Shown: positions 23,659 to 43,107 of the stretch, piece after piece
Layout: every line of letters starts with the position of its first letter
How positions within the stretch are numbered: the stretch's first letter is position 1
Source of the DNA: an uncultured Gammaproteobacteria bacterium
Lineage (GTDB): Bacteria > Patescibacteriota > Microgenomatia > Levybacterales > UBA12049
Reading direction: 5' to 3'
NCBI GenBank assembly: GCA_964512695.1
Contig: CAZEJU010000001.1
Coordinates: 7,803 to 71,802 of the forward strand
DNA: 64,000 nt
Notes under the pieces: model-generated
Database searches by the model: none
The model's input: only the letters and a program-made list of their open reading frames with translations
Told to the model about the DNA's origin: nothing
Translations under genes and position numbers: made by a program

Positions 23659-23728
23659 AAATACTATAAGACAGAATTATACCAAGAATCTGCTTATTTG
23701 TATAGCACAATATTGAATGTAACACTTC

Positions 23729-23875
23729 TTGACAATAAGCAAAAAGTAGAGTATTATCGGATATAACGATATGCATTATATAAAAGTTGAAAACATGATG
23801 GCAATGATGATGACTTCCTAACGGAGGTGTATCACGTGCTGTTTGTGAACGACCTCCTTACTAGGAGGTTTTTTT
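23729..23875 (+). promoter_or_regulatory. Promoter plus Met-codon leader-peptide transcription attenuator
   Basis: TTGACA(23729)-17 nt-TATTAT(23752). Leader ORF 23771..23821 = MHYIKVENMMAMMMTS. GGAGGU (23823..28) can pair with ACCUCC (23852..57), which alternatively forms the terminator ACCUCCU-uacu-AGGAGGU + U6 (23852..23875). Confidence 0.7.
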
Positions 23876-23886
23876 ATTGTAAAAAT

Positions 23887-24794: not shown

Positions 24795-25107
24795 TTGACA
24801 AGCTCAGGCTGATAAGGTAAAGTATGGAAAGAATCAAGAGTGATGGGGAGACCCCAGTCTGATCTTCCTTTTCGCCTTAGTAGATTTCTACTTCGGCTTA
24901 AAGAGCGATCTTACCGGGGCGGGAGTTTTGGCTTCATGATCCATCCGGCAACCCTTCGGTAAGTTCAAACAATGCTTGAACAACGAGCAGGGTGCCAAAC
25001 CCAACCCAAGAGATGTGCTACCGAGTACATCTTCGTAAAGGAGGATTTGATCCTGAGACAATCGAAGGATAAACTATGTATTACCTCTCTTTACGAGAGG
25101 TTTTTTT
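24795..25107 (+). promoter_or_regulatory. Promoter plus S-box (SAM-I)-like riboswitch with extra insert, antiterminator and terminator
   Basis: TTGACA(24795)-17-TAAAGT. S-box-like strings AUCAAGAG (24833), GGGAGUUUUGGCUUCAUGAUCCAUCCGGCAACC (24921..53), GGUGCCAAACCC (24991), AAGAGAUG (25008). UUUGGC (24927) is complementary to GCCAAA (24994), like the SAM-I pseudoknot. Terminator ACCUCUC-uuuac-GAGAGGU + U7 (25083..25107). GUAAAGGAGG (25035) can pair with CCUCUCUUUAC as an antiterminator. Confidence 0.5.
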
Positions 25108-25113
25108 ATTTAT

Positions 25114-26868
25114 ATGGCTAAAGAAGGTGAAATAAAAGGCACATATCAGTTTAGTATAGATGGCCCTCAGCTGACCAGTGACGATATACAGAGGAAGTTC
25201 CCTGGTGTCAAAAATAATGGTCATCTCGGAAAGACTGGTGTAGTACTACATGATACAGCAATTCCTATCGCAGCTATCCGACATCCTCGACTTATACCTA
25301 CGCGGTTAGATGGAATTATACCTGTGTTTGGTGGCCCCCAAACACACAGTAAAATAGAGCATATCCGTATCCGACCAGCTGGTGGCTCAGAAGCGAAAAG
25401 AATAGCAAAAGCAGTCCGTGGAACAACCCCAACACTCGGACCAGAAGCAGAAGCATTTGTACATAACAGAAGAACAGGCAGACTTGTACCTACATTTAAA
25501 GGAAAACAAATTGAAACACAAAAAGCACTGAGAGAAGATGCACTTGGACATACGGGATCGCTTGAAGAACACATCGTAGCATCTGCTAAATTTACAGTTT
25601 TTAGAGCTAATCAAGAGCGCAGACGAGGACGTATCGCAGTTGAAACAAGTGTTCCTATAACCTATGGTGAAGGTAAAGATGCTCGAGATAGTGAAGGTCT
25701 CGCAGGTAGTGAAAATCCATATATTGTGGCTATGACACATCTGTTCCCTGAAAATATGCTCCCTACAGAGAAGCTTGATCCACAAGTTGCAAGCGTTTTA
25801 AATCAATACGCTCTTCGCCATGGGTTTGCGACTATTTCTGATATGACCAGCGCTCTCGGTCTTAACCGCACCTGGCACATGGCTGCAAGCCATCTGAGTC
25901 TTGGTCTACCGCAGGAACAACAACCAGATGGGAAATATATTACTTCTACTGAGATCGCGATAGGAGTTATGAATGTATTTATGAGTGACCTTAATATTTC
26001 GCATATGTTTACTCATGGAACACCTATGCTAGGCGGACAATTAGTAGATGTTCCAGCACGAAATCGTCAATCAGAACATGTGGCCTCAAATCAACCGTTA
26101 CGGGATGTACGACTTGGTGCATTTAAGCATATGTTAGGCACTGCTTATCCTGGCCCGCTTATCGCGAATGAAGAAGATCTCTATGATCGCTGGAGAAAGA
26201 TTGTTATTCCAGGGAAAGCCGCGACTGTAGATCGAGCATCGGCAATTAGTATAGCACCAAATGGAGAAATCTATGCCTCAATGCATGCACGGGCTCGTCT
26301 TCGTGTGGGAGGTGATCCCACAAAACAAACTGTACGAGTCGAATCAGTAGGAGATAGCGCTACACCTTCACGCTACGACTTAATAGCGCGTGACGCGTAT
26401 CTAGTAATGTTATGGAACGGTGCTATGGAGGCAATGGCAAAAGGAAAAACCCCACAAGATTTCTGGGGGGGAAATTATCCAGCAATAACTGACTGGAAAA
26501 AGCAGCAGGAAGCGACATTAGGATTTTCTGTTAATGGACCAGCGAATAGGGAAGCACATGTGCTGATTGAACAAAACCTGGGGTTTTTACGTGATATGAA
26601 AGCTCTCCAACCTACATTAGGTACGTACATCGATTATGTAACAGCACGTATTCGTAATTTTAGTAGACCGACAAAAGCACACACACTCGATGAGTATACA
26701 ACAGATCCATCAGGTAGCATAAGCGAGGTAATTCGACGCATGAAAGAAACCGGATATAAAGATGATGAAATCGTGCGAGCTATTGACACACATCAAACTG
26801 CAGTATCACGAAGAGTTGTTCAAGTTCATGGAGATTTTAAAGCGCTTCTACAAGATGTACAAAAGTAA
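25114..26868 (+). CDS. GCS2 / glutamine-synthetase-fold carboxylate-amine ligase-like protein, paralogue A (584 aa)
   Basis: Shares family landmarks with the other paralogues: GRIAVETSV (G-x-E-x-E-type strand), AASHLSLGLPQ, MHARARLRVGGDPTKQTVRVESVGDSA (R-x-R...E...D, compare HWxxRxx...xExRxxD of GCS2/YbdK). Confidence 0.55.
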   Translation: MAKEGEIKGTYQFSIDGPQLTSDDIQRKFPGVKNNGHLGKTGVVLHDTAIPIAAIRHPRLIPTRLDGIIPVFGGPQTHSKIEHIRIRPAGGSEAKRIAKAVRGTTPTLGPEAEAFVHNRRTGRLVPTFKGKQIETQKALREDALGHTGSLEEHIVASAKFTVFRANQERRRGRIAVETSVPITYGEGKDARDSEGLAGSENPYIVAMTHLFPENMLPTEKLDPQVASVLNQYALRHGFATISDMTSALGLNRTWHMAASHLSLGLPQEQQPDGKYITSTEIAIGVMNVFMSDLNISHMFTHGTPMLGGQLVDVPARNRQSEHVASNQPLRDVRLGAFKHMLGTAYPGPLIANEEDLYDRWRKIVIPGKAATVDRASAISIAPNGEIYASMHARARLRVGGDPTKQTVRVESVGDSATPSRYDLIARDAYLVMLWNGAMEAMAKGKTPQDFWGGNYPAITDWKKQQEATLGFSVNGPANREAHVLIEQNLGFLRDMKALQPTLGTYIDYVTARIRNFSRPTKAHTLDEYTTDPSGSISEVIRRMKETGYKDDEIVRAIDTHQTAVSRRVVQVHGDFKALLQDVQK

Positions 26869-28528: not shown

Positions 28529-28675
28529 TTGACAATTTATAATTGATCTGGTAAGATTATAAGACAAATATGCAACATACGTTTAATTCTATTATTGTCG
28601 TCCTTCTCGTTACCCATTAATTGGGCGGAGGACTCGTGTTAAAAAACGTACCCGCTCAAAGAAGCGGGTTTTTTT
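28529..28675 (+). promoter_or_regulatory. Promoter plus Ile/Val/Leu-codon leader-peptide attenuator
   Basis: TTGACA(28529)-17-TAAGAT. Leader ORF 28570..28620 = MQHTFNSIIVVLLVTH (7 consecutive I/V/L codons). UUGGGCGG (28621) pairs with CCGCUCAA (28652) as antiterminator, versus terminator ACCCGCU-caaaga-AGCGGGU + U7 (28650..28675). Confidence 0.75.
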
Positions 28676-28696
28676 ATGTTTTAAAAGGAGAAATAT

Positions 28697-30556
28697 ATGA
28701 GTTCACATAAAGAATATGCAGGGCAAGCTGCTCTCAAATCCTTAGCTGAAAGATATATTAGAAGGTATGGCTTAAAAGCTGATTTTAATCCCGAAGAGAC
28801 AGGTGGAGTAATTTTCGCTCAAGACGGTACACCACTAAGGCAAGTCCGTGCTCCTTTCTGGAGAGCAGAAAAAGGTGCAAAGGGAACAGGCAGAAAAGAT
28901 ATGCCTAGAGTTTACACTGCTACAAATCCTGACCCGGATAAACCTAACTCAGGATTAGAATTAGAATTCCAAGCTTTCCATGCCATGACAGGAGAAATGG
29001 AACCAGTCATGGATGCAGACCACCCAGTACATCAGGGGTTATTGGAACACAATCGAAAAGCAAAAAATGGACACACTGAAAATAATGGAAATGGACTTGG
29101 AAACGGAAATGGGGTTAATGGATATGTTTTTGTAGAAGACGGCGCTGACTGGGACCATGACTTCCCAACTGGACCTAAAGAAGTAGGATTTAGCCCAGAG
29201 CTAACACGTCATACTTTGGAGGAAAACTTTCCTCCGAATGTAGATTCCGGAACACGAAACAGAGAGACATTATATGGTATTAGCACAGTTGTACAATTAG
29301 CAGAAGCAAATAACACACTTATCTCTCCGTTCTCGACTATACCGCATCGAGATATTACACAAATTGATACGAATCAACATCCATATGTCCAACGCATAGC
29401 GTTCGAACACATGGGTCCCGAAAAAGTTAAACACTTTACAGGTACTTCACTGCAAATTCACGTAGAAATCAAGGATTTAGAGTCAGCTTTACACGCTGCA
29501 AACCGTTGGCAGCTAGTTACACCTATTATGTATGCGGGAACACTTTCAGCACCTTTTATCGCAGGAGAAATAACACCCGATTTACAAGAACGGTATGGTC
29601 AAGTTCCCGACGTGGTTGGCGATCCACTAAAAGAAAGCACATTTGATACTATGACACAAGGACCCCATGAATCATATAGATATTATGGTAGATTAATAGG
29701 ATCACCTTCTGGAGGTGCAATGAGACAGCCTCTACCTGAAACATCTGAAGAATTTTGGTCTGCGGCTAATAATCTTCTAAAATCAGGAGAAAGTCCTTCC
29801 GTGGGTAGAGTAGCAGGACACCATGCAGATTTTCGTATTCGCCCTGACTTGGGACCGTATGGCACAATCGAGTTAGCAGTATTAGATACTGCCGGTGCGC
29901 GCATTCCAAATATCGTAGCCATTCAAGAATTCTCCAGAGCTTTGGGTTGGAAGTTACAGAGACAAGCAGGTAATTGGGAACAAATTATGGAAGATCCTCG
30001 TTTTAAATCGATATTCGGGCAAGCACCTTCTAAGGAAACATTCGAGACTGTTCACTGGAATACTATAGAGGTAGCAAAACATGGAAATAAGGCAATGATT
30101 ACTGGTATGGACGGAGAACAGCATTCTATAGCAGAGTTATGGAGTAAGTTAGTGGAATATGTACAAGAACCTATTGAAGAAACCGGTTATACTGGTTTAC
30201 CGGAAGGTATTATCGAGGTATTAGATAAAGCTTATCAAGACCCATCAGAACTATTTGATGTTTATAAAGACGAAAAAGGAGTTACTTCTGTCAAAGGATT
30301 CTATGAAACCGGAGTCGGAACTATGAGCCAGTGGGCCAGACAACGTGCAGAAGAGTTGAAAGCAAGAGGCTTAGCAGAAAAAGAAGCCATTATCGATACT
30401 ACACTTAATGTAGGCAAAAGCTTTCATGAACATGTAAAGTCAATGACACCCAAAGATCTTAATACTTTATATGTAAGCGCTAACAAGGATGTGGATAAAT
30501 CACCCCAATACAGCGCTAATGGTCAGAATCCATCATACCAAACCACTGCGTCCTAA
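28697..30556 (+). CDS. GCS2-fold carboxylate-amine ligase-like protein, paralogue B (619 aa)
   Basis: SGLELEFQAF, GTSLQIHVEIKD, GHHADFRIRPDLGPYGTIELAVLDTA (close to the GCS2 HWDVRP...T(I/V)E(V/L)RV.D signature). AAAGGAG SD 6 nt upstream. Confidence 0.65.
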   Translation: MSSHKEYAGQAALKSLAERYIRRYGLKADFNPEETGGVIFAQDGTPLRQVRAPFWRAEKGAKGTGRKDMPRVYTATNPDPDKPNSGLELEFQAFHAMTGEMEPVMDADHPVHQGLLEHNRKAKNGHTENNGNGLGNGNGVNGYVFVEDGADWDHDFPTGPKEVGFSPELTRHTLEENFPPNVDSGTRNRETLYGISTVVQLAEANNTLISPFSTIPHRDITQIDTNQHPYVQRIAFEHMGPEKVKHFTGTSLQIHVEIKDLESALHAANRWQLVTPIMYAGTLSAPFIAGEITPDLQERYGQVPDVVGDPLKESTFDTMTQGPHESYRYYGRLIGSPSGGAMRQPLPETSEEFWSAANNLLKSGESPSVGRVAGHHADFRIRPDLGPYGTIELAVLDTAGARIPNIVAIQEFSRALGWKLQRQAGNWEQIMEDPRFKSIFGQAPSKETFETVHWNTIEVAKHGNKAMITGMDGEQHSIAELWSKLVEYVQEPIEETGYTGLPEGIIEVLDKAYQDPSELFDVYKDEKGVTSVKGFYETGVGTMSQWARQRAEELKARGLAEKEAIIDTTLNVGKSFHEHVKSMTPKDLNTLYVSANKDVDKSPQYSANGQNPSYQTTAS

Positions 30557-31759: not shown

Positions 31760-32107
31760 TTGACACGTCATTAACCTCATGGTAGAATTACTATAACATA
31801 CGAATAACAGCGTTGATCCAGTATGGATGGGACTGGGGATTCTCCTTCATTAAAGTTACGCAAGGAGAGCGCTGGGTCTAATCAACCCCGGAGGCGAAAC
31901 CGTAAAAAGATCAGCAACATGTGTCATAGCTGCAGATAAGCACTGATTAAAAGCTGATTCTCGCTGATATAGAGCATGTCATGAATGAGAAGTCCTCCCA
32001 CGCCAAAGCTCCGGAGGATAAAACAAGGTGGCACCGTCCTTAAATAAACGTGGGACCCTTGTAAATAACTACAAAGTAATTTTGTGGTTGTTTACAAGGG
32101 TTTTTTT
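31760..32107 (+). promoter_or_regulatory. Promoter plus T-box-like leader (antiterminator bulge UGGC; specifier not resolved)
   Basis: TTGACA(31760)-17-TAGAAT. ACAAGG-UGGCACC-GUCC..GGAC-CCUUGU (32023..32062) is a T-box-type antiterminator with a 7-nt bulge. Its 3' strand is shared with a 14-bp terminator CCCUUGUAAAUAAC/GUUGUUUACAAGGG + U7 (32056..32107). Confidence 0.6.
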
Positions 32108-32108
32108 A

Positions 32109-33269
32109 ATGGTAAAAACTATGAAAGAAGGAGTTATTATACAAGTTGATCCGAGAATACCAGAGCCATATATAACATATATCCGGCAACGAAATGGGAA
32201 TGTCGGCAGAGATATAGCAGATCACCTTGGCCTACCCTATGTAGGAGACAGTCAGGGAGTACAACGTGCAGCTGATTATTATCCTGTACTTGCCAGAACT
32301 GTCACCAGAGAACATGCAAGAGTATTAGGTGCAGAAAATACAAGAGATTTCTATGGTCTTGCAGTTGAAGATTTAAATGTTGTGGGTAAATCTATACTCC
32401 ATCCTTCTATAAGCAGAAGACATCCTTTATTTCATAGAGAACAATTCGCACGAAAAGTCTTAGGTCAAACCCTTCCTGGTATAACCGGTTTCTCTAAAGA
32501 AGATTTATTAGCAGGGTATGAAAATGGTTACGCTGGATCACTGGATCATGCTTTAGATTACGAGCAGTATGGATTACGTGTTAAACTTCCAAATGAATCC
32601 GACGGCGTAGGACAATTTACTATACAAAGCAAGGATGATCTGGTTACTCTTCTAGAAGCTATTGAGGATAAAGATATCCACGAACAAGGACTGGTTCTGG
32701 AAGCTGATGTACAGAAACCTGAGACTATATCAGTCGGATTCGCGAGAATCGGTGATGAACAATTAAGTTTCATAGCCCAACAAAAAGATGCACGTGTGTT
32801 AGTAGATCATAAGGGCAAAACAATAGAGCAGAATAGATATGGTGGGGCATACGTCGTTGTGGCAAAAGGCCCTTTACAGTTACTATGCCAAGCCACGGAA
32901 GCAACTTCGCGTGAGAGATCTGCTGTAGAAAAAACACTGGCGTTTCATGAAGCCTATCAACGCATCTATGATCCTTTAGCTTCGAGATTAAGTTTCGATG
33001 TCATTTTCGGAGAAGGGAAAAACGGTCTCCCACTTGCAGGAATAAGTGACATTACTGGTAGGCTAGGTGGAACGTGTCCAGCACTCATGCAAGCTGCTGA
33101 AGAGTTCAGGAAAAACCCTTCTATTCAAATGGTAGGAACAGAAGTATCTCTTAATTATACTCCCCATGTACGATTTCCCTATGAAGATGAAGCTAAGGTG
33201 TATGTAGACCACCCAACACTCAGACTTACAGCAAGAGTAAACTCAAAACACAGAAGACTCGCAGCATAG
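32109..33269 (+). CDS. ATP-grasp-like protein (386 aa from the ATG at 32109)
   Basis: GLRVKLPNESDGVGQFTIQSKDDLVTLLE.. and ..GLVLEADVQKPETISVGFARIG.. fit ATP-grasp central-domain strands. I rejected the ORF-track start (32028) because it overlaps the leader terminator. Confidence 0.4.
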   Translation: MVKTMKEGVIIQVDPRIPEPYITYIRQRNGNVGRDIADHLGLPYVGDSQGVQRAADYYPVLARTVTREHARVLGAENTRDFYGLAVEDLNVVGKSILHPSISRRHPLFHREQFARKVLGQTLPGITGFSKEDLLAGYENGYAGSLDHALDYEQYGLRVKLPNESDGVGQFTIQSKDDLVTLLEAIEDKDIHEQGLVLEADVQKPETISVGFARIGDEQLSFIAQQKDARVLVDHKGKTIEQNRYGGAYVVVAKGPLQLLCQATEATSRERSAVEKTLAFHEAYQRIYDPLASRLSFDVIFGEGKNGLPLAGISDITGRLGGTCPALMQAAEEFRKNPSIQMVGTEVSLNYTPHVRFPYEDEAKVYVDHPTLRLTARVNSKHRRLAA

Positions 33270-33278
33270 ACATGAATC

Positions 33279-33422
33279 TTGACATTACACATGGGCTATC
33301 CTATAATCATTTATATGATACGACAAGCAGTAAATTTCTTTTTCTTTTTTACCCCACTCGCGGGGAGGTAATTTCGTGATCACACGAAATACTCTATACC
33401 CCGCATAAGGCGGGGTTTTTTT
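33279..33422 (+). promoter_or_regulatory. Consensus promoter plus Phe-codon leader-peptide attenuator
   Basis: TTGACA(33279)-17-TATAAT(33302). Leader ORF 33315..33371 = MIRQAVNFFFFFTPLAGR, with its ATG only 7 nt after the -10 (leaderless). CCCC/GGGG (33352/33362) 1:2 hairpin. GCGGGG (33360) can pair with CCCCGC (33399), versus terminator CCCCGC-auaag-GCGGGG + U7 (33399..33422). Confidence 0.8.
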
Positions 33423-33435
33423 ATGGAGGAATTCT

Positions 33436-35136
33436 ATGGCAATGACTGAACAAGACATACTAAAAGGTACAATGAACGGCCGAGTTGATTCAGGTTTAAA
33501 GGCAACTGATAACACAGCAGTACCTTTAGGTGAACAATCTCATGGCGGCATAGTCCGAAATACCGATGGACTATGGTGGCTACCTGCCTCACCACATCGC
33601 GGAAGGGGTTTCGAATGGCAAGACTCAAAGGATCCTAGATATAACGCAACACATTTAAGTGAAGTTGGCTACCACCCTGAACCTCTAGAACCACAGAGAA
33701 CCGTAGAAGTATTAGCTGAACATTTACAAGAAAAAGTTGAAGGAAGAATTCCGGAAACAGAAACCCATGGAGTTGAAGTTGAAGGGACTACCTATGATCG
33801 AGAAGGCAATCTCTTAGCAATTCCTGTCGATCAGAAAACAAATCCCGAATTATTAGCTTCTACACATGAAGAAGCCACAAAACTGGAAAACGGACAGTAC
33901 CCGAGAAAACCATTTGAAATAGCTCGAGCAGTAGCCAGTGCAACCCAGCGGGGTATCGCAATCGCTGAAAATCATAGCGGAATACTTGTCCTCACAGAAG
34001 TACCAGAAGGTGGAACATTTCATGATGCTGAAAACAGTACATTTCCATATATAGTACGTCAACAAGGAAGAATTCGAAGACACGCATTAGCACACCTTGA
34101 TGAGATACCTGAAGAAACATGGGCTCTCTATCGACGTTACGGCGTAGATATTCGAGAACTACTGGAATCTAATAGACCGCTCAATTGGCCTACTCATGGA
34201 TTGCATCATCATGCCGGTGCGCCACAAATAGAAGGATTAGTCGACCCGAGAGCCGCACTGGTTATGGGAAAAATGCGTCAAACACTTTTTGCAAAATTAC
34301 TGCAATACCCAGCATTTAATAGCAGTAGATTATATGAAAAAGAAACTGATCTCCGCGGAGTCCGATCTGTCGCAAAACACGCGCTTGCTACAACAGTTAA
34401 TAATGATTTACCTGATAGTGCTGAAGAGCTAATGTGGGATGTGCAACGGGCAATGAGAGAGGGAGAAATCGCTACGCCTTCACGATATCCTTATAAAGGC
34501 CAACACGATGTCGTTCGATTTAGGATGGATGGAAAACATAAAACTGTCGAGTCTATTAAAGATCCTATGACACCTGACCTATTAACAGCGCTTCATCTCG
34601 TGTTCGGCAATCAACTCCTGGATACCATCGGCCAGCAAGCTCTCGTACAAGTAGGTGGAGATGAAAGCAAAGTTATGGGTTATTTACAATCTATACATCC
34701 TGAGCTTTTTGCCACATTGCCTTCATTAGGTCCTGAGTCATCACATAGTGCAGATATGCAGTTTAATAAAGCAGGGTATCTAGGAACATTCCGCGGGAAA
34801 ACTTATGCTGAGCTTATAAGAGATGCACGTGCTGTCGTGGAAGGGGTAGGCAAACATTATACAGCACTTGAGACACAAGCTAAAATTGTAAATCACGTAC
34901 TAGGATACCAAACAGATATTCCTCATCCACAGACTGATCTAGCAACATTTATGGGAATAAAAAATGGAGTTTACCAACCAAATAGTATGAGAGCAGGAAT
35001 TCTAACGGATTATAAAACGGGTATTCCTACAAATGAACTGTTAGTTGTCCAGGCTGAAGCAACGAAATTACAAGCTCAAGCTTTAGCACAAGTGAGAGAT
35101 GATAAAGATCTTCTCGAAGTGTATGGATTACAGTAA
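33436..35136 (+). CDS. GCS2-fold carboxylate-amine ligase-like protein, paralogue C (566 aa)
   Basis: HGVEVEGTTY, THGLHHHAGAP, GQHDVVRFRMDGKHKTVESIKDPM. GGAGG SD 6 nt upstream. Confidence 0.55.
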   Translation: MAMTEQDILKGTMNGRVDSGLKATDNTAVPLGEQSHGGIVRNTDGLWWLPASPHRGRGFEWQDSKDPRYNATHLSEVGYHPEPLEPQRTVEVLAEHLQEKVEGRIPETETHGVEVEGTTYDREGNLLAIPVDQKTNPELLASTHEEATKLENGQYPRKPFEIARAVASATQRGIAIAENHSGILVLTEVPEGGTFHDAENSTFPYIVRQQGRIRRHALAHLDEIPEETWALYRRYGVDIRELLESNRPLNWPTHGLHHHAGAPQIEGLVDPRAALVMGKMRQTLFAKLLQYPAFNSSRLYEKETDLRGVRSVAKHALATTVNNDLPDSAEELMWDVQRAMREGEIATPSRYPYKGQHDVVRFRMDGKHKTVESIKDPMTPDLLTALHLVFGNQLLDTIGQQALVQVGGDESKVMGYLQSIHPELFATLPSLGPESSHSADMQFNKAGYLGTFRGKTYAELIRDARAVVEGVGKHYTALETQAKIVNHVLGYQTDIPHPQTDLATFMGIKNGVYQPNSMRAGILTDYKTGIPTNELLVVQAEATKLQAQALAQVRDDKDLLEVYGLQ

Positions 35137-35139
35137 GCT

Positions 35140-35982
35140 TTATTCTCCTGACCAGGACATGGCATTCATAGCTATTTGAGAATCCATATCCAAATTCTTC
35201 AAAGTAAGTGGCAGAAAAGATACATTACTTAATAAGACAGCTCGTTCTAAGGGGGTATTTTCCAGAATAGGAGCATACAGTCGTCCTTCAATACCATCTC
35301 GGACTTCCTTCACATTAACAGAATCAGTAACACCAACCACAGGTACTGTAATTGAGTGTTTTTCTATCTGTAAATATTTCGAGGGCCAGATAAGATCTGG
35401 ATTTTCACTATCTGAAACGAAAAACTGTCTACCATTCGCAGGAACTACTAAACCTGATACAGCAGGTCTGGTATCAAAACTCTGGCCTTCATCACCCCAT
35501 AACATCTCACGAATGTCCTGGTGTACGTAACCTCTTCCACCTGAAAGGAGCGCAGCGCCATTCGCGTTGGAATAGAGCAATCCGAATGCTATACCTATCT
35601 CATCTAATTCTATGGCAGCAGGGGATGCAGCACGCTCTGAAAGTGATAAAGAAGCAGTACGCATTTGTTGCATCTGACTTATAGCACCTCTATGCTTCTG
35701 CATAACCATTTCTCTAACAGATTCACGTTCTTTATTAAAAGCTGACCATGTAGCAGGGAGAACGTCTATATATGCAGTTATACCCAATTCTTCGCGAATT
35801 GTTTTCTCTAATGCAGCCACCCTATCCATAGCGATCAATCGCTCACGGTCAGCGTGGATACTAGCGCCAATATCCTTACCTGCCAGAGCTTTTAAATAAG
35901 CAGCATGATACTCAGCATATAACGTGCGTAGTTGTTGGGTGTAGATTTGCAGCAATCTCGAATTTTCTCTACGTTCTATCAT
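35140..35982 (-). CDS. Hypothetical protein (280 aa) embedded in the ligase cluster
   Basis: Long ORF convergent with paralogue C (stops 3 nt apart), with cluster-like GC-rich codon usage. No recognised family. Confidence 0.45.
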   Translation of the reverse strand: MIERRENSRLLQIYTQQLRTLYAEYHAAYLKALAGKDIGASIHADRERLIAMDRVAALEKTIREELGITAYIDVLPATWSAFNKERESVREMVMQKHRGAISQMQQMRTASLSLSERAASPAAIELDEIGIAFGLLYSNANGAALLSGGRGYVHQDIREMLWGDEGQSFDTRPAVSGLVVPANGRQFFVSDSENPDLIWPSKYLQIEKHSITVPVVGVTDSVNVKEVRDGIEGRLYAPILENTPLERAVLLSNVSFLPLTLKNLDMDSQIAMNAMSWSGE

Positions 35983-36100
35983 GGGTAATATTATATATTA
36001 TAGGATCTAATTCACACAAGCATACGGGTCGGTATTTTCCAGCACAGTTATTTATTAAGCAGTTTGTAATATTAGGAAGACTATTGTAGTTAGTAAAGTG

Positions 36101-36174
36101 TGGGGCCAAGTGGACTTGAACCACTGACCTTTTCAATGTCAATGAAACGCTCTAGCCAACTGAGCTATGGCCCC
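36101..36174 (-). tRNA. tRNA-Val (anticodon GAC)
   Basis: GGGGCCA/UGGCCCC acceptor, A73, D-arm GCUCAGUUGGCUAGAGC, anticodon loop UUGACAU, T-loop UUCAAGU. Confidence 0.85.
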
Positions 36175-36306
36175 ATTTTTTACAATCACCATTCTAACAA
36201 AATAGTACTTGTAAAACAATCTTTCTCGTTTTCTAGCATTGTTAATATTTTTACTGTATTTATTGACATAGCTTTATGACCTTCTGTTATACTATCTGCA
36301 TACTTA

Positions 36307-36900
36307 TTGGGGCAACAAATGACAAGATCTGAAGCATATACAATGCTTACAAAATATCTCCATAATAAAAACCTTATTAAGCATTGTCTTGCTGCTGAAG
36401 CGACAATGAAAGCTTTATATAAACGCCTGACTCCACAGCATGAACAAAACCCAGCAGATGAGGAAAAATGGGGGATTGTGGGACTCATGCATGATGCGGA
36501 TTATGAAATTGCACAACAGACAAACCAGCTTGATAAACATGGATTGTTACTCTTTGAAAAAGAACAGGGAACAATACCAGATGATATCGCGCATGCTATT
36601 AAATCTCACAATTTTTTAAACACGAGAGTAATGCCAGAGAATGCCATGGATTGGGCTATAGAAACATGTGATCAACTAACAGGGCTTATCGTCGCAGCCG
36701 CGCTCATCCACCCTGATAGAAAATTATCCTCACTAGATACACAATTCGTATTAAACCGATTTCACGAAAAATCATTTGCGAAGGGAGCAAAACGTGAGGC
36801 GATTATTCTCGCTGAAAAAAAGCTAGGGTTACAGCTAGAAGAATTCATAACAGTTACATTAAAGGCAATGCAAGGAATTAGTACAGAATTGGGATTGTAA
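36307..36900 (+). CDS. HD-domain phosphohydrolase
   Basis: ..HCLAAEATMKAL.. and GLMHDADYE (H..HD motif). About 197 aa, HDIG-like. Confidence 0.65.
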   Translation: MGQQMTRSEAYTMLTKYLHNKNLIKHCLAAEATMKALYKRLTPQHEQNPADEEKWGIVGLMHDADYEIAQQTNQLDKHGLLLFEKEQGTIPDDIAHAIKSHNFLNTRVMPENAMDWAIETCDQLTGLIVAAALIHPDRKLSSLDTQFVLNRFHEKSFAKGAKREAIILAEKKLGLQLEEFITVTLKAMQGISTELGL

Positions 36901-36930
36901 TTTATACTTTTATTCTCCATAATATTTTTA

Positions 36931-37152
36931 ATGTCTTCCGAAAAATATCATCATGTACATAAAGGAAAGATTGAGATTTTCATCAATAATTTTACAGGCG
37001 GAATTGCCTGGGGATTAGGAGCAAGTGTAGGTGTATCAATCCTATTTACGATTCTCGGTTTTATAGCAACTCAAGCAAATCTCGTTCCCTATATAGGAAC
37101 ATTTGTTTCACAAATTATCGACTTCGTGTTAAAACATAACAAACATTTTTAA
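36931..37152 (+). CDS. Small membrane protein
   Basis: 73-aa ORF with two hydrophobic helices (GGIAWGLGASVGVSILFTILGFIA..). Confidence 0.4.
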   Translation: MSSEKYHHVHKGKIEIFINNFTGGIAWGLGASVGVSILFTILGFIATQANLVPYIGTFVSQIIDFVLKHNKHF

Positions 37153-37163
37153 TAACTGCTGTA

Positions 37164-37296
37164 TTGACGAACTGTATGACTCATGGTATATTGCTCAAAT
37201 ATATGAAATCCACTTTTTTAGTTTGTTGTGTTACAACTCTGCTTTAAGGGGTTGTAGTTATCGTGGAATATGCACCCCGCCAAGCGGGGTTTTTTT
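37164..37296 (+). promoter_or_regulatory. Promoter plus leader-peptide attenuator with tandem Cys codons (specificity tentative)
   Basis: TTGACG(37164)-17-TATATT. Leader ORF 37203..37247 = MKSTFLVCCVTTLL. GGGG (37248) immediately after the stop can pair with CCCC (37275), versus terminator CCCCGC-caa-GCGGGG + U7 (37275..37296), directly abutting the gene's ATG. Confidence 0.55.
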
Positions 37297-38289
37297 ATGA
37301 GAAACTTATTAGAATTAGGAATTTTCGAAACATACGGAAATGGTGGAGGAGCAATTACCAAAGATAGAGTATCTCCTCCTATTTATCCAGTAGATGCTAA
37401 TTTAGGTGAATGGAGGATACTAGCAACTGATCATGAAAGAGAATTCCCGGGCGAGCATCTCGAACGTGCTTTTGAAGTGATAAAGCAATGGCAGGAAGTA
37501 TTTCCTCGGGAAGATACCTGGATTAATCGTGCGTATGGTATTCCGTCACCGATTATTAAACTCGATGCAACAATTACTAATAATGAATTACAGGTGTATG
37601 AAGTAGAAGATAGACCAGCAGGAATGGGTTATAGCGAATTAATAAATCCTGACTTACGAACAAATTTTGCTGATATTGTATCTACTTGGCCAGATTTCCG
37701 AGTCGTCGTTTCTCCTCAAAGATCTGGAAATGACGATCATTTATGGGCAAAGCCAGCAGAAGCAGATTGGCATGGTCTAGTTCTCGTCCGGGCAGAACCG
37801 TCTGAAGAAGAATTCCATGCATTACAGCGAAGATCCATAAGTACTCTGCTTACAGAAGGAGACAAATCGTATGGTGAAAAAATGGGTTTATGGAAAAGAG
37901 TTCATACAGCAGATGAGATAGATTTTTCACAAGGTTTTGTCGTCAAGCCCACCCAAGGAAGCAAAGGGAATGGTGTGTATGTATCTTTACCGAAACAATA
38001 CATGAAAGAACATGGGATCGACCCAGGTAGAAATGGCGTAGCTACTGCAGGGAAAATACGAGGTGTAATCGATACTGCAGCAGCAAATGGAGGAGTCTTC
38101 GTACAACAATATCATCCTCCTATGGAAACAGGTATCCCGACCCATCCCTGGGCAGTAAACCGGTTATTCTTCGGGTATGATATGCAAAATGGAGAATGGA
38201 GATATATAGGGGGAACATGGAATGCTCGAAATAATTTGAAAATTCATGGAGCTAGTGATACATTAACTGGCCCGTTAAAAACGGTATAA
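37297..38289 (+). CDS. ATP-grasp-like ligase (330 aa)
   Basis: GFVVKPTQGSKGNGVYVSL (ATP-grasp K-P-x-x-G-S-x-G-x-G-V strand), ..VFVQQYHPP... Start set at the ATG abutting the terminator U-tract. Confidence 0.5.
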   Translation: MRNLLELGIFETYGNGGGAITKDRVSPPIYPVDANLGEWRILATDHEREFPGEHLERAFEVIKQWQEVFPREDTWINRAYGIPSPIIKLDATITNNELQVYEVEDRPAGMGYSELINPDLRTNFADIVSTWPDFRVVVSPQRSGNDDHLWAKPAEADWHGLVLVRAEPSEEEFHALQRRSISTLLTEGDKSYGEKMGLWKRVHTADEIDFSQGFVVKPTQGSKGNGVYVSLPKQYMKEHGIDPGRNGVATAGKIRGVIDTAAANGGVFVQQYHPPMETGIPTHPWAVNRLFFGYDMQNGEWRYIGGTWNARNNLKIHGASDTLTGPLKTV

Positions 38290-38346
38290 AAAAAATTGAT
38301 TAGATTTTACTTCACTTACCCTCGGTTCGTAAACGTAAATGCTCTC

Positions 38347-38492
38347 TTGACGTCCAAATAGATATAACTCTATAATACAAAGTGTTCTATATGAATATCA
38401 TGAATAACAATGGAGCAGTAAAGAAGAACCTCTCGTAAGAGGGGTCTTTCTGTTGTCTGCACAATAGTACCCCTTACAGAAGGGGTTTTTTT
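38347..38492 (+). promoter_or_regulatory. Promoter plus Asn-codon leader-peptide attenuator
   Basis: TTGACG(38347)-18-TATAAT(38371). Leader ORF 38391..38438 = MNIMNNNGAVKKNLS (5 Asn in 15 aa). CCUCU/AGAGG hairpin over the stop codon. GAGGGG (38439) can pair with CCCCUU (38470), versus terminator CCCCUU-acag-AAGGGG + U7 (38470..38492). Confidence 0.65.
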
Positions 38493-38615
38493 ATGGATTT
38501 TTTGCTGAACCAATAGTTCTACTTAGAAATCCAAATCCTCCAAAAAGCGCTCTTCGAGCCGCAGTTCAAATGAACTAAAGCGGAAAGGAAGCTTAGGAGG
38601 ACAAAGCTTTACATT

Positions 38616-39899
38616 ATGAAAGAAGGACTAAAAGTATTATCACACTCATCTATAGAGGAATATCTATTCGATACTGATGTCGAAGACCGATATTATATTC
38701 CGTGGCGTGCAGCCGCAGAAGCAGCAGCAAGAATCGAACTAGGACAACAAGTTTTGACAATCCTTCCAAAACGTGAAGCTTTTAACGAATACCTCACCCT
38801 TTTACAAATGAAATTACTGGGAGGAAGAAGTATTCCAACGCTGTTTACACCTGATGAAGATTATCTTATGGATACTGATATTAAAAAATATCTTATGGAT
38901 ACTCTTCGTGGCAGATTTAACAGAAGTACCACTATTCATCCCTATCAAGCAACACCTGAATTTTATGATTGGGCGGGGGAGTTAGAACAGAAAGGCGTTA
39001 AAATTTACGCAGATAGAAAACGCAAAGACTTACGTGACTGGTGGGGACATAAAGGAGCATATCATCGATGGATAGATGATCTCGATACTCCCACTCAATT
39101 TGAAGGATTACATTTACCAATACCTCGAGGATACGTGGCTCAAAACCATGGAGAATTACTTGTAGCGAAAAAACTTCTACCAACTGACACTGTTGTGGCA
39201 AAACCAATTTTCGGAGCTGGTGGATTTCAAATAGAGTTCTTAGACGACGATAATATCGATACATATGAATGGCCTACCGACCCCACAACGGAAAAACCCA
39301 TGCCAGTTGCTGTACAAGAAAGACTAAGAATTGGTCGAGATGAATTCGGCGAACGTGTTTTTTCCTACCAGTTTGAGGGCCCACAACCAATGGGACGATT
39401 AACACGACAAATTATGGATCAGGAAACTGGGAAAGTCTGGAGTGGGAATAGAGTACCAGCAGATGTTACACCTGAGTTTGAACGAAGAGCAAAGGATGTA
39501 GTTCATACTTTAGTCATGAAAACAAAACCAAAAGGAGACGGGGGAGTCGATATAGCAGATGTAGATGGAGAACCAGTAATCATCGAAGTAAACGGAGGAA
39601 GGCCAACTGGCGCACATATGCCGAAACGATTTCAACAAGCCTTCGCGCCTGAAGCTCCACATTTCGTATTTCAGAAAGTAGAACCAAACGGATATTCACC
39701 ATTCGATATTTGGGATAGACTCGAAGGAGGAAACTTGCCTCGCACGAATGAAACTCTAGTATTTCAGCGTGAAAGACAACGCGGGGTTTTTCCATTAGTT
39801 TGGTTACCGAACTCTTGGGGAATGCTTGCAAGCTTCGGAGGATCATTCGAAGAAGCAAATAATCAGTTACTCGCAGCTCGTGATAGAATAGGCGTATGA
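38616..39899 (+). CDS. ATP-grasp-like ligase (427 aa)
   Basis: VVAKPIFGAGGFQIEFL, ..GGVDIADVDGEPVIIEVNGGRPTG.. (ATP-grasp C-terminal E-x-N region). AGGAGG SD. Confidence 0.5.
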   Translation: MKEGLKVLSHSSIEEYLFDTDVEDRYYIPWRAAAEAAARIELGQQVLTILPKREAFNEYLTLLQMKLLGGRSIPTLFTPDEDYLMDTDIKKYLMDTLRGRFNRSTTIHPYQATPEFYDWAGELEQKGVKIYADRKRKDLRDWWGHKGAYHRWIDDLDTPTQFEGLHLPIPRGYVAQNHGELLVAKKLLPTDTVVAKPIFGAGGFQIEFLDDDNIDTYEWPTDPTTEKPMPVAVQERLRIGRDEFGERVFSYQFEGPQPMGRLTRQIMDQETGKVWSGNRVPADVTPEFERRAKDVVHTLVMKTKPKGDGGVDIADVDGEPVIIEVNGGRPTGAHMPKRFQQAFAPEAPHFVFQKVEPNGYSPFDIWDRLEGGNLPRTNETLVFQRERQRGVFPLVWLPNSWGMLASFGGSFEEANNQLLAARDRIGV

Positions 39900-40966
39900 C
39901 TGAGAAAAGGGTAGTACAAATATTTTTCGATTTAGTAAAAATTGACAGCCCTTCTGGACATGAAGAGAACGTTTTAGAGTATATAGAAGCATATTGCAAA
40001 AAACTCTCACTAAATACACAGAGGGATTCTTATGGAAACCTCATCGTTAAAAAAGAAGGAGTAGGTGAACCACTACTTCTCTGTTCACATGCCGATACAG
40101 TAGAACCAGGGAAAAATATTCAACCACGAATAGAGAACGGAATTATAAAAAGCGATGGTACGACGATACTTGGTGCTGATAATAAATCGTCTATTGCAGC
40201 GATTCTCGAGGCTGTGAAACAATTAGTTGAAGAAAAAAAACACCATAGGCCTCTAGAGCTTGTGTTTACAAAATCTGAAGAAGTTGCTAGCTGGGGAGCA
40301 GTATATCTGGACTACAAACAACTTCAAGCAAAAGAAGGATATACGATAGATAACGCAAATCCTGTAGGAACAATTGTCTACGCGTCTCCTTTTTACTATC
40401 GTTTCGATATTACAGTATTCGGTAAAGATGCCCATGCTTCAAGACCGCATGAAGGAATTCATGCTTTAAAAATCGCTGCAAGCGCCATTCATAAAATAAA
40501 ACTTGGAAAAATTGATACAAATACACTTGCCAATATCGGCATGATCCAATCAGGCCATGTACGCAACACAATTCCAGGTTCAGTAGTGCTTATGGGAGAA
40601 GTACGAAGCTATTCCGATGAGAAAGCTCAAAGGTACTTAAACAAAATTATTGATACATTTAGAAAAACTGCAGAAAAAACGGGAGGATCTATAACGTACG
40701 AAACGCTGAAAGAAAATGCTGGGTATATATATAAAACAAATGATCCCTTTGTAAAAAAAACGATGCAGATTATGAAAAAGATTGGAGTAGAAACGAACTT
40801 AATTAAAACTCTGGGCTGTGCCGATGCAAATGTGATCCAAGAGCATGGAATTAAAATGCTCGACCTGGGCGACGGCTCACGCAGAGCGCATACACTAAAG
40901 GAGTCAATACCGGTAGCACAGTTACAAAGAGTCGTTGAGCTAGTATTAGCTCTTGCTGGAGCATAA
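39896..40966 (+). CDS. M20-family metallopeptidase (second copy, peptidase T-like)
   Basis: SPSGHE, SHADTVEPG, LGADNKSSIA, KDAHASRPHEGIHA. ATGA start/stop overlap with the upstream ATP-grasp gene. Paralogue of 30591..31676. Confidence 0.75.
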   Translation: MTEKRVVQIFFDLVKIDSPSGHEENVLEYIEAYCKKLSLNTQRDSYGNLIVKKEGVGEPLLLCSHADTVEPGKNIQPRIENGIIKSDGTTILGADNKSSIAAILEAVKQLVEEKKHHRPLELVFTKSEEVASWGAVYLDYKQLQAKEGYTIDNANPVGTIVYASPFYYRFDITVFGKDAHASRPHEGIHALKIAASAIHKIKLGKIDTNTLANIGMIQSGHVRNTIPGSVVLMGEVRSYSDEKAQRYLNKIIDTFRKTAEKTGGSITYETLKENAGYIYKTNDPFVKKTMQIMKKIGVETNLIKTLGCADANVIQEHGIKMLDLGDGSRRAHTLKESIPVAQLQRVVELVLALAGA

Positions 40967-41085
40967 AACCATACACTCTTCACCCTCCCTTTTCGAATTT
41001 ACGTGAACACTTCCCGAGGTTTGAATAGAAACCAACCTCCCAGGTTGGCAACTAGTAATTTGAGGACTTGCTTAAGGGAGCGTTT

Positions 41086-41204
41086 ATGCGATATACTTTC
41101 TTCAACATGAGTAAATCAGTTTTCGGAACTACCACTACAACAACCCTTTCCTAAGGGAGGTTGGCGTGGTATTATTTAACAACCTCCTTAATAGGAGGTT
41201 TTTT
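41086..41204 (+). promoter_or_regulatory. Thr-codon leader-peptide attenuator
   Basis: AGGGAG SD, then leader ORF 41086..41154 = MRYTFFNMSKSVFGTTTTTTLS (6 consecutive Thr codons). CCCUU/AAGGG 1:2 hairpin. AAGGGAGGUUG (41153) pairs with CAACCUCCUU (41180), versus terminator CCUCCU-uaau-AGGAGG + U6 (41183..41204). The terminator is nearly identical to that of the Met leader. Confidence 0.8.
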
Positions 41205-41322
41205 ATTGGGGAGAACACGTATCCGTCAGCTGAGGGATACCACGATAGAATCCCATGGATTATTGCATGGAATCCTATCGCCCCGGTGTACGTCAGGACT
41301 GAAAGCTGACCACAAATAACAT

Positions 41323-43107
41323 ATGACAAACGAACAAGAACTAAAAATAGGAGGACAAAAATCAGCGACGAAAGTTGATTTCGCTCATGCTGAGCATCCT
41401 TTAACCCATGCACGTCTTTATGAAGCAGTAGAAGAACGACGTGGTACCGTAGGTCCTGTAGGAGATGTTCCCAGAGCATATATAAGGGACTCTGCAACTG
41501 CGGCAATTATAGTAAGCACACCTTCAAAAGAGGTGGTTGCTGCTGTTCGATCACCTCTATGGATTCCTAGTGGTGTACGAAATGGAAGAGTAGAATTTGG
41601 TGGAAGACCAGATAAAGATCATATCGAATTTTCTTACTTACGTGAAACTGATTGGGAGTATGTAAAAGAATCTGCGAGGAAAAGATTAGACGCACTTAAA
41701 AAAGCCACAAAACTTAACGAATTTGTTGCTGAGCATGGAGGCTATCTCGGTATAGGAACAGAGCCGGAAGCATTTCTCCTTCATGAAGATGGCAGTGTCG
41801 TACAGATAAACGCTGGAGAGTCATTTTTAGGCCAGAGAGAAGACGCTCTGCCACCGATAGCGACACCCAGAGAGTATGCCCGCGCACGAGCGGAACTTAT
41901 TCAAAATCGAAGACAGCAATTACAGGCTGGTCAAATTGCCTTCGACGGCTCAGTTCGACCTACGGGGAAGATGAGCGAAACAAGAATAACCCAAGAAGGT
42001 GATGAAGCAATATATAATGTAGCTATCACGCAAGCGCTCCATACACGATACACCCATTGTGCAGATCCATTAACACGACAAATCATGGATCAGCTTGCTA
42101 AAACAGAAAACTATAGAGATTTTGACGAAATCTATAATCATGCTTCAACGATAACATACTGGGGTCCTCCCTCTGCATCGCATGCAGCTATAGGAATGCA
42201 TCAAAGACGCGAAAATGGGACAACCTTTGTACCAGAATGGGAAGCAGTAGCTCATGCAGATGTCATAAATAGCGATTTCGCAACTGCTGATGAACTACTG
42301 ATGATGTCAACGCCAGTCATATTCGGAGAACAACCTCAAGTTTTACATAAAGGTACATGGAGAAAACCACGCGACTATCGTCATTTTATGCGACATGTCG
42401 TTGACACTACCTATCCAGCACCTTTTGTCGGCTCGCCAGAAGCATTACGAGCAAATGTTACCGACAGTATACTCTCCGGCAGATCGCACACACTTGATAG
42501 ATCTGCATATACTGCAGATGTACATGGTTTATTAGTCCCTAACTATCATGGAAGAGTACGGATTAGACAAAAGGTTGATGTTACTCATAAAGGAGAAATT
42601 AAACAATCATGCCGTATAGAAGAAACAGGATGTTCACAGTCCGCATCTTTACCTGATGAATTGGCAAGAAATGCACTTATGCAGCTTAGAGCTGTTGCTG
42701 TCGACGAAGCCCTCGCAGCAGGTATGCATCCCTCTGAATTCTATAAAGAGAAATATCCGCATATGACAACTTGGCAAAAGCAGCAAGATATCGTACTCCA
42801 TGCAAATCTCTATGGTTTCCGACATCCTTTACCATCTGCTGTGATAATGGAAAATATTAGGCTTGTACGAGATATCGGTAAGAGATATCCTGTACTCGGT
42901 CTTCAAGCCGTACTCGCAGAAACACGCTTGAGAAATTTATTTGATGATCCAGCACGCTCTTTAGAAGTTTATGAACAAAAACCTATTGGTCCATTTAGCG
43001 AAGTTCTCCAGAATGAATTACATAATGGTACTTCACCTGTAGAACTCGCTCAAAAAGTAGCCGCTTACCAGGATACAGTAGCGGAAAAGATATTAAGAGT
43101 TCCATAG
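41323..43107 (+). CDS. GCS2-fold carboxylate-amine ligase-like protein, paralogue D (594 aa)
   Basis: YLGIGTEPEAFLLHEDG, SASHAAIGMHQ, NYHGRVRIRQKV...SCRIEETGCSQSA. Lies between the Thr attenuator and thrS. Confidence 0.55.
   Translation: MTNEQELKIGGQKSATKVDFAHAEHPLTHARLYEAVEERRGTVGPVGDVPRAYIRDSATAAIIVSTPSKEVVAAVRSPLWIPSGVRNGRVEFGGRPDKDHIEFSYLRETDWEYVKESARKRLDALKKATKLNEFVAEHGGYLGIGTEPEAFLLHEDGSVVQINAGESFLGQREDALPPIATPREYARARAELIQNRRQQLQAGQIAFDGSVRPTGKMSETRITQEGDEAIYNVAITQALHTRYTHCADPLTRQIMDQLAKTENYRDFDEIYNHASTITYWGPPSASHAAIGMHQRRENGTTFVPEWEAVAHADVINSDFATADELLMMSTPVIFGEQPQVLHKGTWRKPRDYRHFMRHVVDTTYPAPFVGSPEALRANVTDSILSGRSHTLDRSAYTADVHGLLVPNYHGRVRIRQKVDVTHKGEIKQSCRIEETGCSQSASLPDELARNALMQLRAVAVDEALAAGMHPSEFYKEKYPHMTTWQKQQDIVLHANLYGFRHPLPSAVIMENIRLVRDIGKRYPVLGLQAVLAETRLRNLFDDPARSLEVYEQKPIGPFSEVLQNELHNGTSPVELAQKVAAYQDTVAEKILRVP

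Follow-up and report, generated by a model that had tools for sequence, protein, structure and literature searches.

The classical leader-peptide attenuators of amino acid operons are those of Escherichia coli, namely, trpL, pheL (PMC3082878), hisL, thrL, and ilvL. Leaders built around cysteine codons have also been described. Upstream of cysS in Rhodobacterales, the upstream open reading frame (uORF) uORFC-8-2 carries two tandem Cys codons followed by an intrinsic terminator and has been read as a Cys-tRNA-responsive, ribosome-mediated attenuator (PMC8632094). In mycobacteria, polycysteine leaderless small open reading frames (sORFs), the "Cys ribulon," were shown experimentally to sense cysteine by ribosome stalling, for which two consecutive Cys codons are reportedly enough, and several independent sORF sensors per genome constitute a ribosome-directed regulon (10.1101/834739). 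Leader peptides with Cys runs had been predicted earlier in Actinobacteria (PMC1262725), and leader peptides lie ahead of trpE, leuA, ilvB, and aroF in Corynebacterium glutamicum (PMC3890552). Here, we analyzed a 64,000-nucleotide (nt) stretch of contig CAZEJU010000001.1, hereafter the window, and within it a unit at positions 37164 to 37296 in which a 14-codon open reading frame (ORF) with two adjacent Cys codons is placed between a promoter and an intrinsic terminator, directly ahead of a gene encoding a 330-amino-acid (330-aa) ligase. This unit is very probably a genuine ribosome-mediated leader-peptide transcription attenuator; we lean, by a small measure, toward its reading the charging of tRNA-Cys.

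The unit resembles trpL in having a promoter-proximal ORF of the same length and a pair of neighboring codons for a rare amino acid (Trp in trpL), and it shares with classical attenuators the exclusive 1:2, 2:3, and 3:4 hairpins and an intrinsic terminator before the structural gene. It differs from them in that its leader ORF is leaderless or nearly so and has no Shine-Dalgarno (SD) sequence, the leader stop codon falls in the 1:2 loop, its "on" state is modeled as a double antiterminator (2:3 plus 1':4), and the start of the gene abuts the U tract. Furthermore, the controlled gene is an uncharacterized ligase gene rather than a biosynthetic operon, the host is probably of the Patescibacteria type, and no Rfam leader family matches. 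With uORFC-8-2, the unit shares a tandem-Cys uORF followed by an intrinsic terminator. However, the Cys codons of uORFC-8-2 occupy approximately codons 14 to 15, are mostly UGC, and precede cysS, whereas the unit described here has UGU at codons 8 and 9 and belongs to a different phylum; neither its sequence nor its structure showed similarity to uORFC-8-2. We place it outside uORFC-8-2 on the basis of a gene other than cysS and the absence of a related match in the Rfam scan; the published consensus was not compared directly. Like the mycobacterial sORFs, the leader is a leaderless sORF with at least two consecutive Cys codons, as judged from the spacing between the -10 element and the ATG (10 nt, and 7 nt in the close homologue L001 described below). 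The characterized mycobacterial locus, however, sets a stalled ribosome against a duplex that sequesters the ribosome binding site, which is a translational mechanism with no intrinsic terminator, whereas the unit here would rely chiefly on a canonical terminator; the genes controlled by the mycobacterial sORFs are those of cysteine metabolism. As in C. glutamicum, the leader-peptide attenuators belong to a nonproteobacterial organism in which many transcripts are leaderless. C. glutamicum is a prototroph that uses them for biosynthetic operons, whereas auxotrophy and a reduced genome are probable for the present host, whose leader-controlled genes encode ligases, peptidases, and aminoacyl-tRNA synthetases. 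The unit joins a leaderless sORF of the mycobacterial kind to a canonical terminator of the proteobacterial kind; in addition, its U tract leads straight into the start codon, and its target gene is nonbiosynthetic.

The components that a first-pass annotation of this DNA had listed, namely, promoter, leader ORF, terminator, a GGGG after the stop codon, and a U tract running into the ATG of the gene, were all recovered (Table 1). The promoter, which is of the sigma-70 type, consists of TTGACG, a 17-nt spacer with TG at 37184-85, and TATATT at 37187-37192, and it matches the consensus at 10 of 12 positions in addition to the extended -10. The leader ATG follows the -10 element by 10 nt with no SD sequence, a spacing that would make the ORF effectively leaderless. 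The ORF ends in the Leu codons CUG CUU (37239-37244) and a stop codon, immediately 3' of which comes GGGG (37248-37251). The terminator, ACCCCGC-CAA-GCGGGGU (37274-37290), has a 7-bp stem with six G-C pairs and a 3-nt loop. Tandem Cys codons are rare in this sequence: CC is present in just 1.3% of the ATG-initiated ORFs of 10 to 20 codons in the window, no residue of the proteome is rarer than Cys (0.52%), and the probability of CC at proteome frequencies is ~3e-4. Terminator-like sites are enriched in the region (22 found versus 11 expected); promoter-like sites are not (32 found versus 39 expected). No Rfam family matched the unit at gathering thresholds, and at E <= 10 only subthreshold noise was obtained, including Trp_leader (RF00513, 13.6 bits versus a threshold of 41) and Phe_leader (RF01859, 13.0 versus 55). 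A megablast search of positions 33000-42000 against phages, which bears on a phage origin or a mobile promoter/stem-loop cassette, returned no match. T-box riboswitch identity was rejected for the unit, with a 95-nt leader that is too short and no T-box signal in Rfam, and so was a lipoprotein signal reading of "LVC," in which no lipobox fits.

Conservation was assessed in the single relative of the ligase above 50% identity returned by a protein search (P0002, 77%), which is encoded on a 3.2-kb contig, L001, where the order of the genes matches that of the window. The two leader regions differ at 18% of positions. The -35 element, the TG-extended -10, the ORF, and all four RNA segments are kept; L001 has TTGAC at -35, TGnTATAnT at -10, an ATG 7 nt past the -10, and a 14-codon leader ORF, MKSTGTICCTTTLF, with three synonymous changes. 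Its UGU UGU is identical at codons 8 and 9, whereas four of the six flanking codons differ; the Thr doublet has grown to TTT (ACU ACA ACA), and there is an extra Thr at codon 6. Segments 2, 3, and 4 have changed jointly and in a compensatory manner, from GGGG/CCCC/GGGG to GGAGG/CCUCC/GGAGG, such that segment 2 of L001, (A)GGAGG, matches its CCUCC(U), and an equivalent of the 1':4 pairing is present as CUCUU/AGGAG. The first-pass annotation had named the loss of Cys codons or of the alternative pairing from homologous leaders as grounds for abandoning an attenuator; in this one close homologous leader the Cys doublet is retained and the pairing is preserved by compensatory changes. Metagenome contigs scanned for the exact pattern ATGAAATCCAC-N9-TGTTGT-N3-ACAAC gave no match.

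The minimum free energy (MFE) fold of the free RNA contains the outer helix UCCAC/GUGGA, a 10-bp hairpin between codons 10 to 13 and the segment after the stop codon, and the terminator (-25.7 kcal/mol, z = -1.9; in L001, -31.5 kcal/mol, z = -3.6). The leader stop codon is located in the loop of this 1:2 hairpin. In the models, hairpins 1:2 and 3:4 (the terminator) are mutually exclusive with hairpin 2:3 (the antiterminator). The double antiterminator predicted for the "on" fold pairs GGGGU (37248-52) with ACCCC (37274-78) and CUCUGCUU (37237-44) with AAGCGGGG (37282-89), and with a ribosome on the Cys codons it is modeled at -21.4 kcal/mol versus -16.0 kcal/mol with the terminator forced. The GGGGU/ACCCC pairing has the position seen in the sister units and covaries in L001. 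Moreover, a stop-proximal segment complementary to the 5' arm of the terminator reached a shuffle p of <0.04 in 11 of the 15 units examined, with p = 0.018 in L001.

In the mechanism that we propose, RNA polymerase would start a few nucleotides upstream of the AUG at 37203, and a 70S ribosome would load on this near-leaderless AUG and translate the 14-codon ORF. When Cys-tRNA is plentiful, the ribosome would get to the UAA, and either segment 1 (37231-40) would pair with segment 2 (37248-57) or segment 2 would lie under the ribosome at the stop codon; segments 3 and 4 would then form the terminator, and transcription would stop at U7. When Cys-tRNA is scarce, the ribosome would stall with UGU 8 or 9 in the A site and mask the 5' half of segment 1. 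During this stall, GGGGU of segment 2 would pair with ACCCC of segment 3, CUCUGCUU (segment 1') may pair with segment 4, and no terminator would form, allowing the polymerase to continue into the 330-aa ligase gene, whose start abuts the U tract and for which the sole SD-like element would be the 3' arm of the terminator.

The amino acid sensed had been left uncertain between Cys and the accompanying Thr and Leu doublets. In a ribosome-mask model, the A site of the ribosome was moved codon by codon, the RNA was masked to the ribosome's 3' edge, and the Boltzmann probability that the terminator forms, P(terminator), was computed for each position. This is an equilibrium model, and it was calibrated on units with unambiguous codon runs from the window and from homologous loci (designated L). 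The collapse of P(terminator) in these calibrators falls exactly on the enriched codons: M9-M13 in the Met unit, T8-T13 in the Thr unit, F7-F12 in L042, F8-F13 in L043a, and N5-V10 in the Asn unit of L001. For the Cys-containing leader of the window, P(terminator) was 0.00 at C8, C9, and V10 with a short footprint and 0.00 at V7 and C8 and 0.11 at C9 with a long footprint; at T11 and T12 it was 0.77 to 0.81. This pattern was stable for footprints of 8 to 13 nt. L001 followed the same trend more weakly, with minima of 0.20 to 0.43 at I7, C8, and C9 and a value of 0.91 at T11 and T12. In locus L014, the dip at M13-A16 coincides with the end of a Cys run and not with HFWF. The modeling prefers Cys over Thr, and because of it and of a dedicated six-Thr leader 4 kb downstream, we favor Cys: given an attenuator, Cys is probably the main signal, with a Thr contribution possible.

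An identical attenuator that senses threonine, or Cys and Thr jointly in the manner of the multivalent E. coli leaders thr and ilv, is unlikely. The Thr codons ACA ACU are conserved and become ACU ACA ACA in L001, where a new Thr also appears at codon 6 and the probability of at least three Thr in six codons is 0.004. They occupy codons -5 to -3 from the stop codon, positions that belong to the regulatory runs of the Met, Thr, and Ile/Val/Leu (ILV) units. In addition, T11 enters the on-window at very short footprints (6 to 8 nt), and T10 of L001 gives a P(terminator) of 0.49 to 0.65. However, realistic footprints leave P(terminator) at 0.77 to 0.91 at T11 and T12 in both sequences, and the dedicated TTTTTT leader (41107-41154) already precedes a 594-aa gene and the threonyl-tRNA synthetase (ThrRS) operon. 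Two Thr in six codons are also not unusual (p = 0.048), and the Thr codons are required anyway for the pairing of segments 1 and 2. A Cys-reading attenuator nevertheless has several observations to contend with, among them the equal conservation and regulatory-run position of these Thr codons. There is a single close homologue, so that the covariation involves just two sequences. The GGGGU/ACCCC antiterminator spans only 5 bp, with a shuffle p of 0.12 by itself, and the "on" and "off" folds of L001 are nearly isoenergetic (-17.2 versus -16.8 and -14.2 versus -13.9 kcal/mol). The mask model also gives a low P(terminator) of 0.1 to 0.2 on codons 1 to 7 of the window unit, which only kinetic arguments explain away. 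UGUUGU is the exact reverse complement of ACAACA, and RNA pairing could therefore constrain the Cys codons. Distant homologues of the ligase carry leaders rich in aromatic residues (W/F/Y/H) rather than Cys leaders, and any link between the ligase and cysteine supply is hypothetical.

An RNA acting independently of the ORF, either a small RNA of roughly 95 nt with a promoter and terminator of its own or a leader whose alternative folds are set by a ligand or protein, would make the short ORF incidental. The conserved outer helix, 9 bp long in L001, could account, through the RNA, for the conservation of codons 2 to 4, UGUUGU is complementary to ACAAC, and frame preservation across two sequences is weak coding evidence; terminated attenuator RNAs can, moreover, act in trans in other bacteria (PMC6614838). 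We consider this improbable, as the best Rfam leader scores are 13 to 14 bits versus thresholds of 41 to 55, six units in the window and dozens of homologous loci place an ATG 4 to 16 nt past the -10 with biased codons exactly in the modeled on-window, the FFFFF, TTTTTT, and MM-MMM runs are meaningful in one frame only, and leaderless initiation appears to be the rule in this genome. Very improbable is the idea that the 14-aa peptide is itself the product, whether as a small hydrophobic peptide or as a graspetide-like substrate or precursor of the ATP-grasp enzyme, that is, a ribosomally synthesized and posttranslationally modified peptide. The short ORF does lie immediately upstream of an ATP-grasp ligase gene, and the peptide is hydrophobic with Cys, Ser, Thr, and Lys, but its 14 residues include neither Asp nor Glu, with which ester or amide cross-links could be made, and show no leader/core organization. 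Units of the same design precede unrelated genes (the SAM hydrolase gene, the ThrRS operon, and genes for 566- to 619-aa proteins), the family conserves peptide composition only and not sequence, and a terminator between peptide and enzyme points to regulation. Equally remote, and already disfavored, is chance juxtaposition, in which the hairpin would be the terminator of the upstream DUF5665 gene (36931-37152) and the promoter-like site and ORF would be fortuitous. Promoter-like matches are indeed no commoner than in shuffled sequence, and the DUF5665 gene has no other terminator before 37274; the preservation of all elements in L001 despite the differing positions and the recurrence of the module across the window and in other genomes speak against it.

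Table 1. Features of the Cys-containing leader unit and its sister units (window coordinates)
Feature	Position	Strand	Basis or remark
-35 hexamer TTGACG	37164..37169	+	Consensus scan; TTGACT in L001
Extended -10 TGgTATATT	37184..37192	+	Sequence reading and consensus scan; TGcTATAGT in L001
Leader ORF MKSTFLVCCVTTLL plus stop, 14 codons	37203..37247	+	ATG 37203, TAA 37245-47
Outer helix 5' arm UCCAC, closes 1:2 hairpin	37209..37213	+	MFE fold; helix 9 bp in L001
Tandem Cys codons UGU UGU, codons 8-9, proposed sensing codons	37224..37229	+	Identical in L001; modeled P(terminator) ~0 with A site there
Segment 1 UUACAACUCU, pairs with segment 2 in predicted "off" fold	37231..37240	+	Folds
Thr codons ACA ACU, codons 11-12, part of segment 1, possible secondary signal	37233..37238	+	ACU ACA ACA in L001
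Segment 1' CUCUGCUU, mimics terminator 5' arm, can pair with segment 4 in predicted "on" fold	37237..37244	+	Constrained folds
Segment 2 GGGGUUGUAG	37248..37257	+	GGGGU at its 5' end pairs with segment 3 ACCCC (antiterminator)
Outer helix 3' arm GUGGA	37263..37267	+	MFE fold
Terminator 5' arm (segment 3) ACCCCGC	37274..37280	+	Terminator scan, folds
Terminator 3' arm (segment 4) GCGGGGU	37284..37290	+	Sole SD-like sequence before gene
U7 tract of terminator, also spacer to start codon	37290..37296	+	ATG 37297 next
Regulated gene, 330 aa, ATP-grasp carboxylate-amine ligase, glutathionylspermidine-synthetase/YgiC fold	37297..38289	+	
Met unit, leader MHYIKVENMMAMMMTS, run MM-MMM	23728-23877		Downstream: SAM-hydrolase-family gene
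Ile/Val/Leu unit, leader MQHTFNSIIVVLLVTH, run IIVVLLV	28530-28676		Downstream: 619-aa protein and M20 peptidase
Phe unit, leader MIRQAVNFFFFFTPLAGR, run FFFFF	33279-33422		Downstream: 566-aa protein
Cys unit, leader MKSTFLVCCVTTLL			Downstream: 330-aa ligase
Asn unit, leader MNIMNNNGAVKKNLS, N-rich	38347-38492		Downstream: ATP-grasp_3 and M20 peptidase
Thr unit, leader MSKSVFGTTTTTTLS, run TTTTTT	41067-41205 (ORF 41107-41154)		Downstream: 594-aa protein and ThrRS-IF3-PheST cluster

Databases contain 44 proteins of the small family to which the 330-aa protein belongs. Neither Pfam nor NCBIfam has a model for this family, and a PDB sequence-profile search with the protein returned no match. Its placement in the GspS/YgiC-like acid-amine ligase class comes from fold comparison, which bears out the earlier description of the gene as ATP-grasp-like; the class includes glutathione metabolism enzymes, a resemblance only. 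An in-frame ATG at 37270 was rejected as the gene start, being absent in L001, and the database protein begins at 37297.

The relationship between terminator and start codon recurs throughout the window. In all nine leader terminators, a start codon lies within 4 to 12 nt of the terminator stem, at exactly 6 nt in five. These modules of a G-rich 3' arm, U4-7, and a start codon are found at 23870-23890, 25101-25116, 28669-28700, 32101-32111, 33416-33449, 37290-37299, 38486-38516, 41200-41325, and 56327-56334, and in four of the nine, that of the ligase included, the start codon is the gene's own. In the Met, ILV, Phe, and Thr units, the module start opens a mini-ORF, the end of which falls anywhere from 12 nt upstream of the gene start to 14 nt inside the gene; the mini-ORF of the Asn unit ends 99 nt before the gene start. 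That four of five mini-ORFs adjoin or overlap the gene start in this way suggests, from the layout of the sequence, ribosome loading with termination-reinitiation coupling. In L001, L003, and L043, the terminator arm is a perfect GGAGG 7 to 9 nt before the ATG, and the L001 arm, AGGAGGU, is a perfect SD sequence 9 nt before it. The first-pass proposal that transcriptional and translational control may be coupled through the 3' arm, as the only SD-like sequence, gains backing from GGAGG-U7/9-AUG in these three loci and from the recurrent arm-U6/7-start module. The 3' arm of the ligase unit is predicted to be paired in both the "off" and the "on" folds. A translational component acting through the SD-like arm inside the terminator is possible but would be secondary.

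The ligase unit is not isolated. A scan for a promoter, an ATG within 20 nt, a short ORF, and a terminator, combined with sequence reading, identified six units of the same design in the window, each with its own amino acid signature (Table 1; domains of downstream genes were assigned from Pfam), in agreement with the first-pass remark that the design was shared with other units. Enzymes of the SAM hydrolase family, one of which is encoded downstream of the Met leader, release methionine by the annotated chemistry of the family. At window gene starts, a -10 box (at least five of six matches) ends 4 to 11 nt upstream of the ATG in 20 of 39 cases, versus 5.4% of control ATGs, and an SD-like 4-mer is present at only 7 of 39. 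Translation in this genome thus appears to be mostly leaderless, and the missing SD sequence before the leader ORF would therefore be normal. The Phe (33398-33416) and Cys (37274-37290) units have identical terminator arms, ACCCCGC/GCGGGGU, with different loops, which is compatible with descent of the units from each other by duplication.

Other leaders in the window have a different organization. Two long ORF-less leaders, at 31760-32108 and about 55900-56331, each have a terminator and a T-box-like sequence (GGUGGCACCG near 32028 and GAGGUGGUACCACGG at 56120-56134); the first lies ahead of a DUF3182 ATP-grasp gene, and the second lies ahead of a YbdK-like ligase gene. Rfam calls neither of them a T-box, and for the leader at 31760-32108 a T-box reading was rejected on that ground. 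A further region, 24797-25108, contains a promoter, a leader of roughly 260 nt without a convincing ORF, and a terminator upstream of a 584-aa gene, the product of which is a 26%-identical paralogue of the 594-aa protein under the Thr leader; this leader could be a riboswitch or a T-box variant. The leader-controlled proteins encoded at 28697-30556 and 56332-57711 show weak similarity, well below curated cutoffs, to carboxylate-amine ligases of the YbdK/glutamate-cysteine ligase type. Ligases of several folds abound in the region, which also has two paralogous M20 peptidases.

Leader-peptide attenuation is textbook knowledge and tandem-Cys leaders have been described, and the switch alone is not new. 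It is, however, a well-supported example in a genome that is probably of the Candidate Phyla Radiation (CPR)/Patescibacteria type, and full-text literature searches found no paper on leader-peptide attenuation in Patescibacteria or CPR. The interest lies mainly in its context within a battery of sensors for several amino acids. We tentatively envisage, as a possibility somewhat short of likely, that the Met, Ile/Val/Leu, Phe, Cys, Asn, and Thr leaders, together with the long T-box-like leaders, allow a presumed auxotroph to switch on, one amino acid at a time, uncharacterized carboxylate-amine ligases (GspS-like, DUF3182, ATP-grasp_3, and YbdK-like), M20 peptidases, a SAM hydrolase, and ThrRS, and that the ligase family is leader controlled in many Patescibacteria lineages, for the most part by leaders rich in aromatic residues, and has been retuned to cysteine here. 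If so, the battery would be an undescribed regulon for amino acid starvation or salvage. The codons of each leader also tag anonymous genes with an amino acid, which offers a functional hint for a rare ligase family and its neighbors. Furthermore, the genome illustrates the attenuation design under leaderless translation, with the leader ORF at the 5' end and the G-rich terminator arm and U tract as the putative ribosome-binding region of the gene.

Scans of genome and metagenome collections yielded 95 loci with homologues of the ligase at 26 to 45% identity, and all named loci among them come from metagenome-assembled genomes of the Patescibacteria group or from unclassified bins; it is from this distribution that the window is taken to be probably CPR-like. 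An automated search found a strong promoter, an ATG 4 to 16 nt past the -10, a short ORF, and a terminator at 37 of the 95. Among 32 distinct leader peptides, 27 have Trp within aromatic clusters (e.g., KFWHYTF, YFFWTYF, and YFFYFFWF), and 13 contain Cys, adjacent Cys residues being confined to one (L014, NCCCMCG). Relative to the proteome, the family leaders are enriched 4.1-fold in Cys, 3.5-fold in Trp, and 2.6-fold in Phe. The nearest loci after L001 (L042, L043, and L044) have aromatic leaders, sometimes with two attenuators in tandem. Aromatic leaders in the distant homologues therefore indicate that leader control is a trait of the gene family and that the Cys signature is that of the present lineage.

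Several of these loci have additional features. Two complete attenuators stand in tandem in L003 (3692-3931) and L043 (5758-6002), MKINLCKFWHYTFLNGR followed by M..CQYWF.YHFLKKGGISVA, and the second leader ORF begins directly after the U tract of the first terminator. Where the ligase has a long N terminus, a conserved structured motif that lacks an ORF follows the leader ORF and its terminator and precedes the gene (e.g., ggcctccctgactagtacggggggcc), at about 300-480 in L004, 3290-3480 in L007, 3440-3560 in L016, and 3420-3510 in L019; this motif may be one more riboswitch-like element. Other leaderless leader ORFs, with runs of Phe, Ile/Leu, or Thr/Asn/Met, occur in L023 (minus strand, about 2769), L005 (521), L054 (706), and L066 (99), and leader ORFs of this kind in the flanks of the loci suggest that the leader-peptide mechanism is widespread in the Patescibacteria group.

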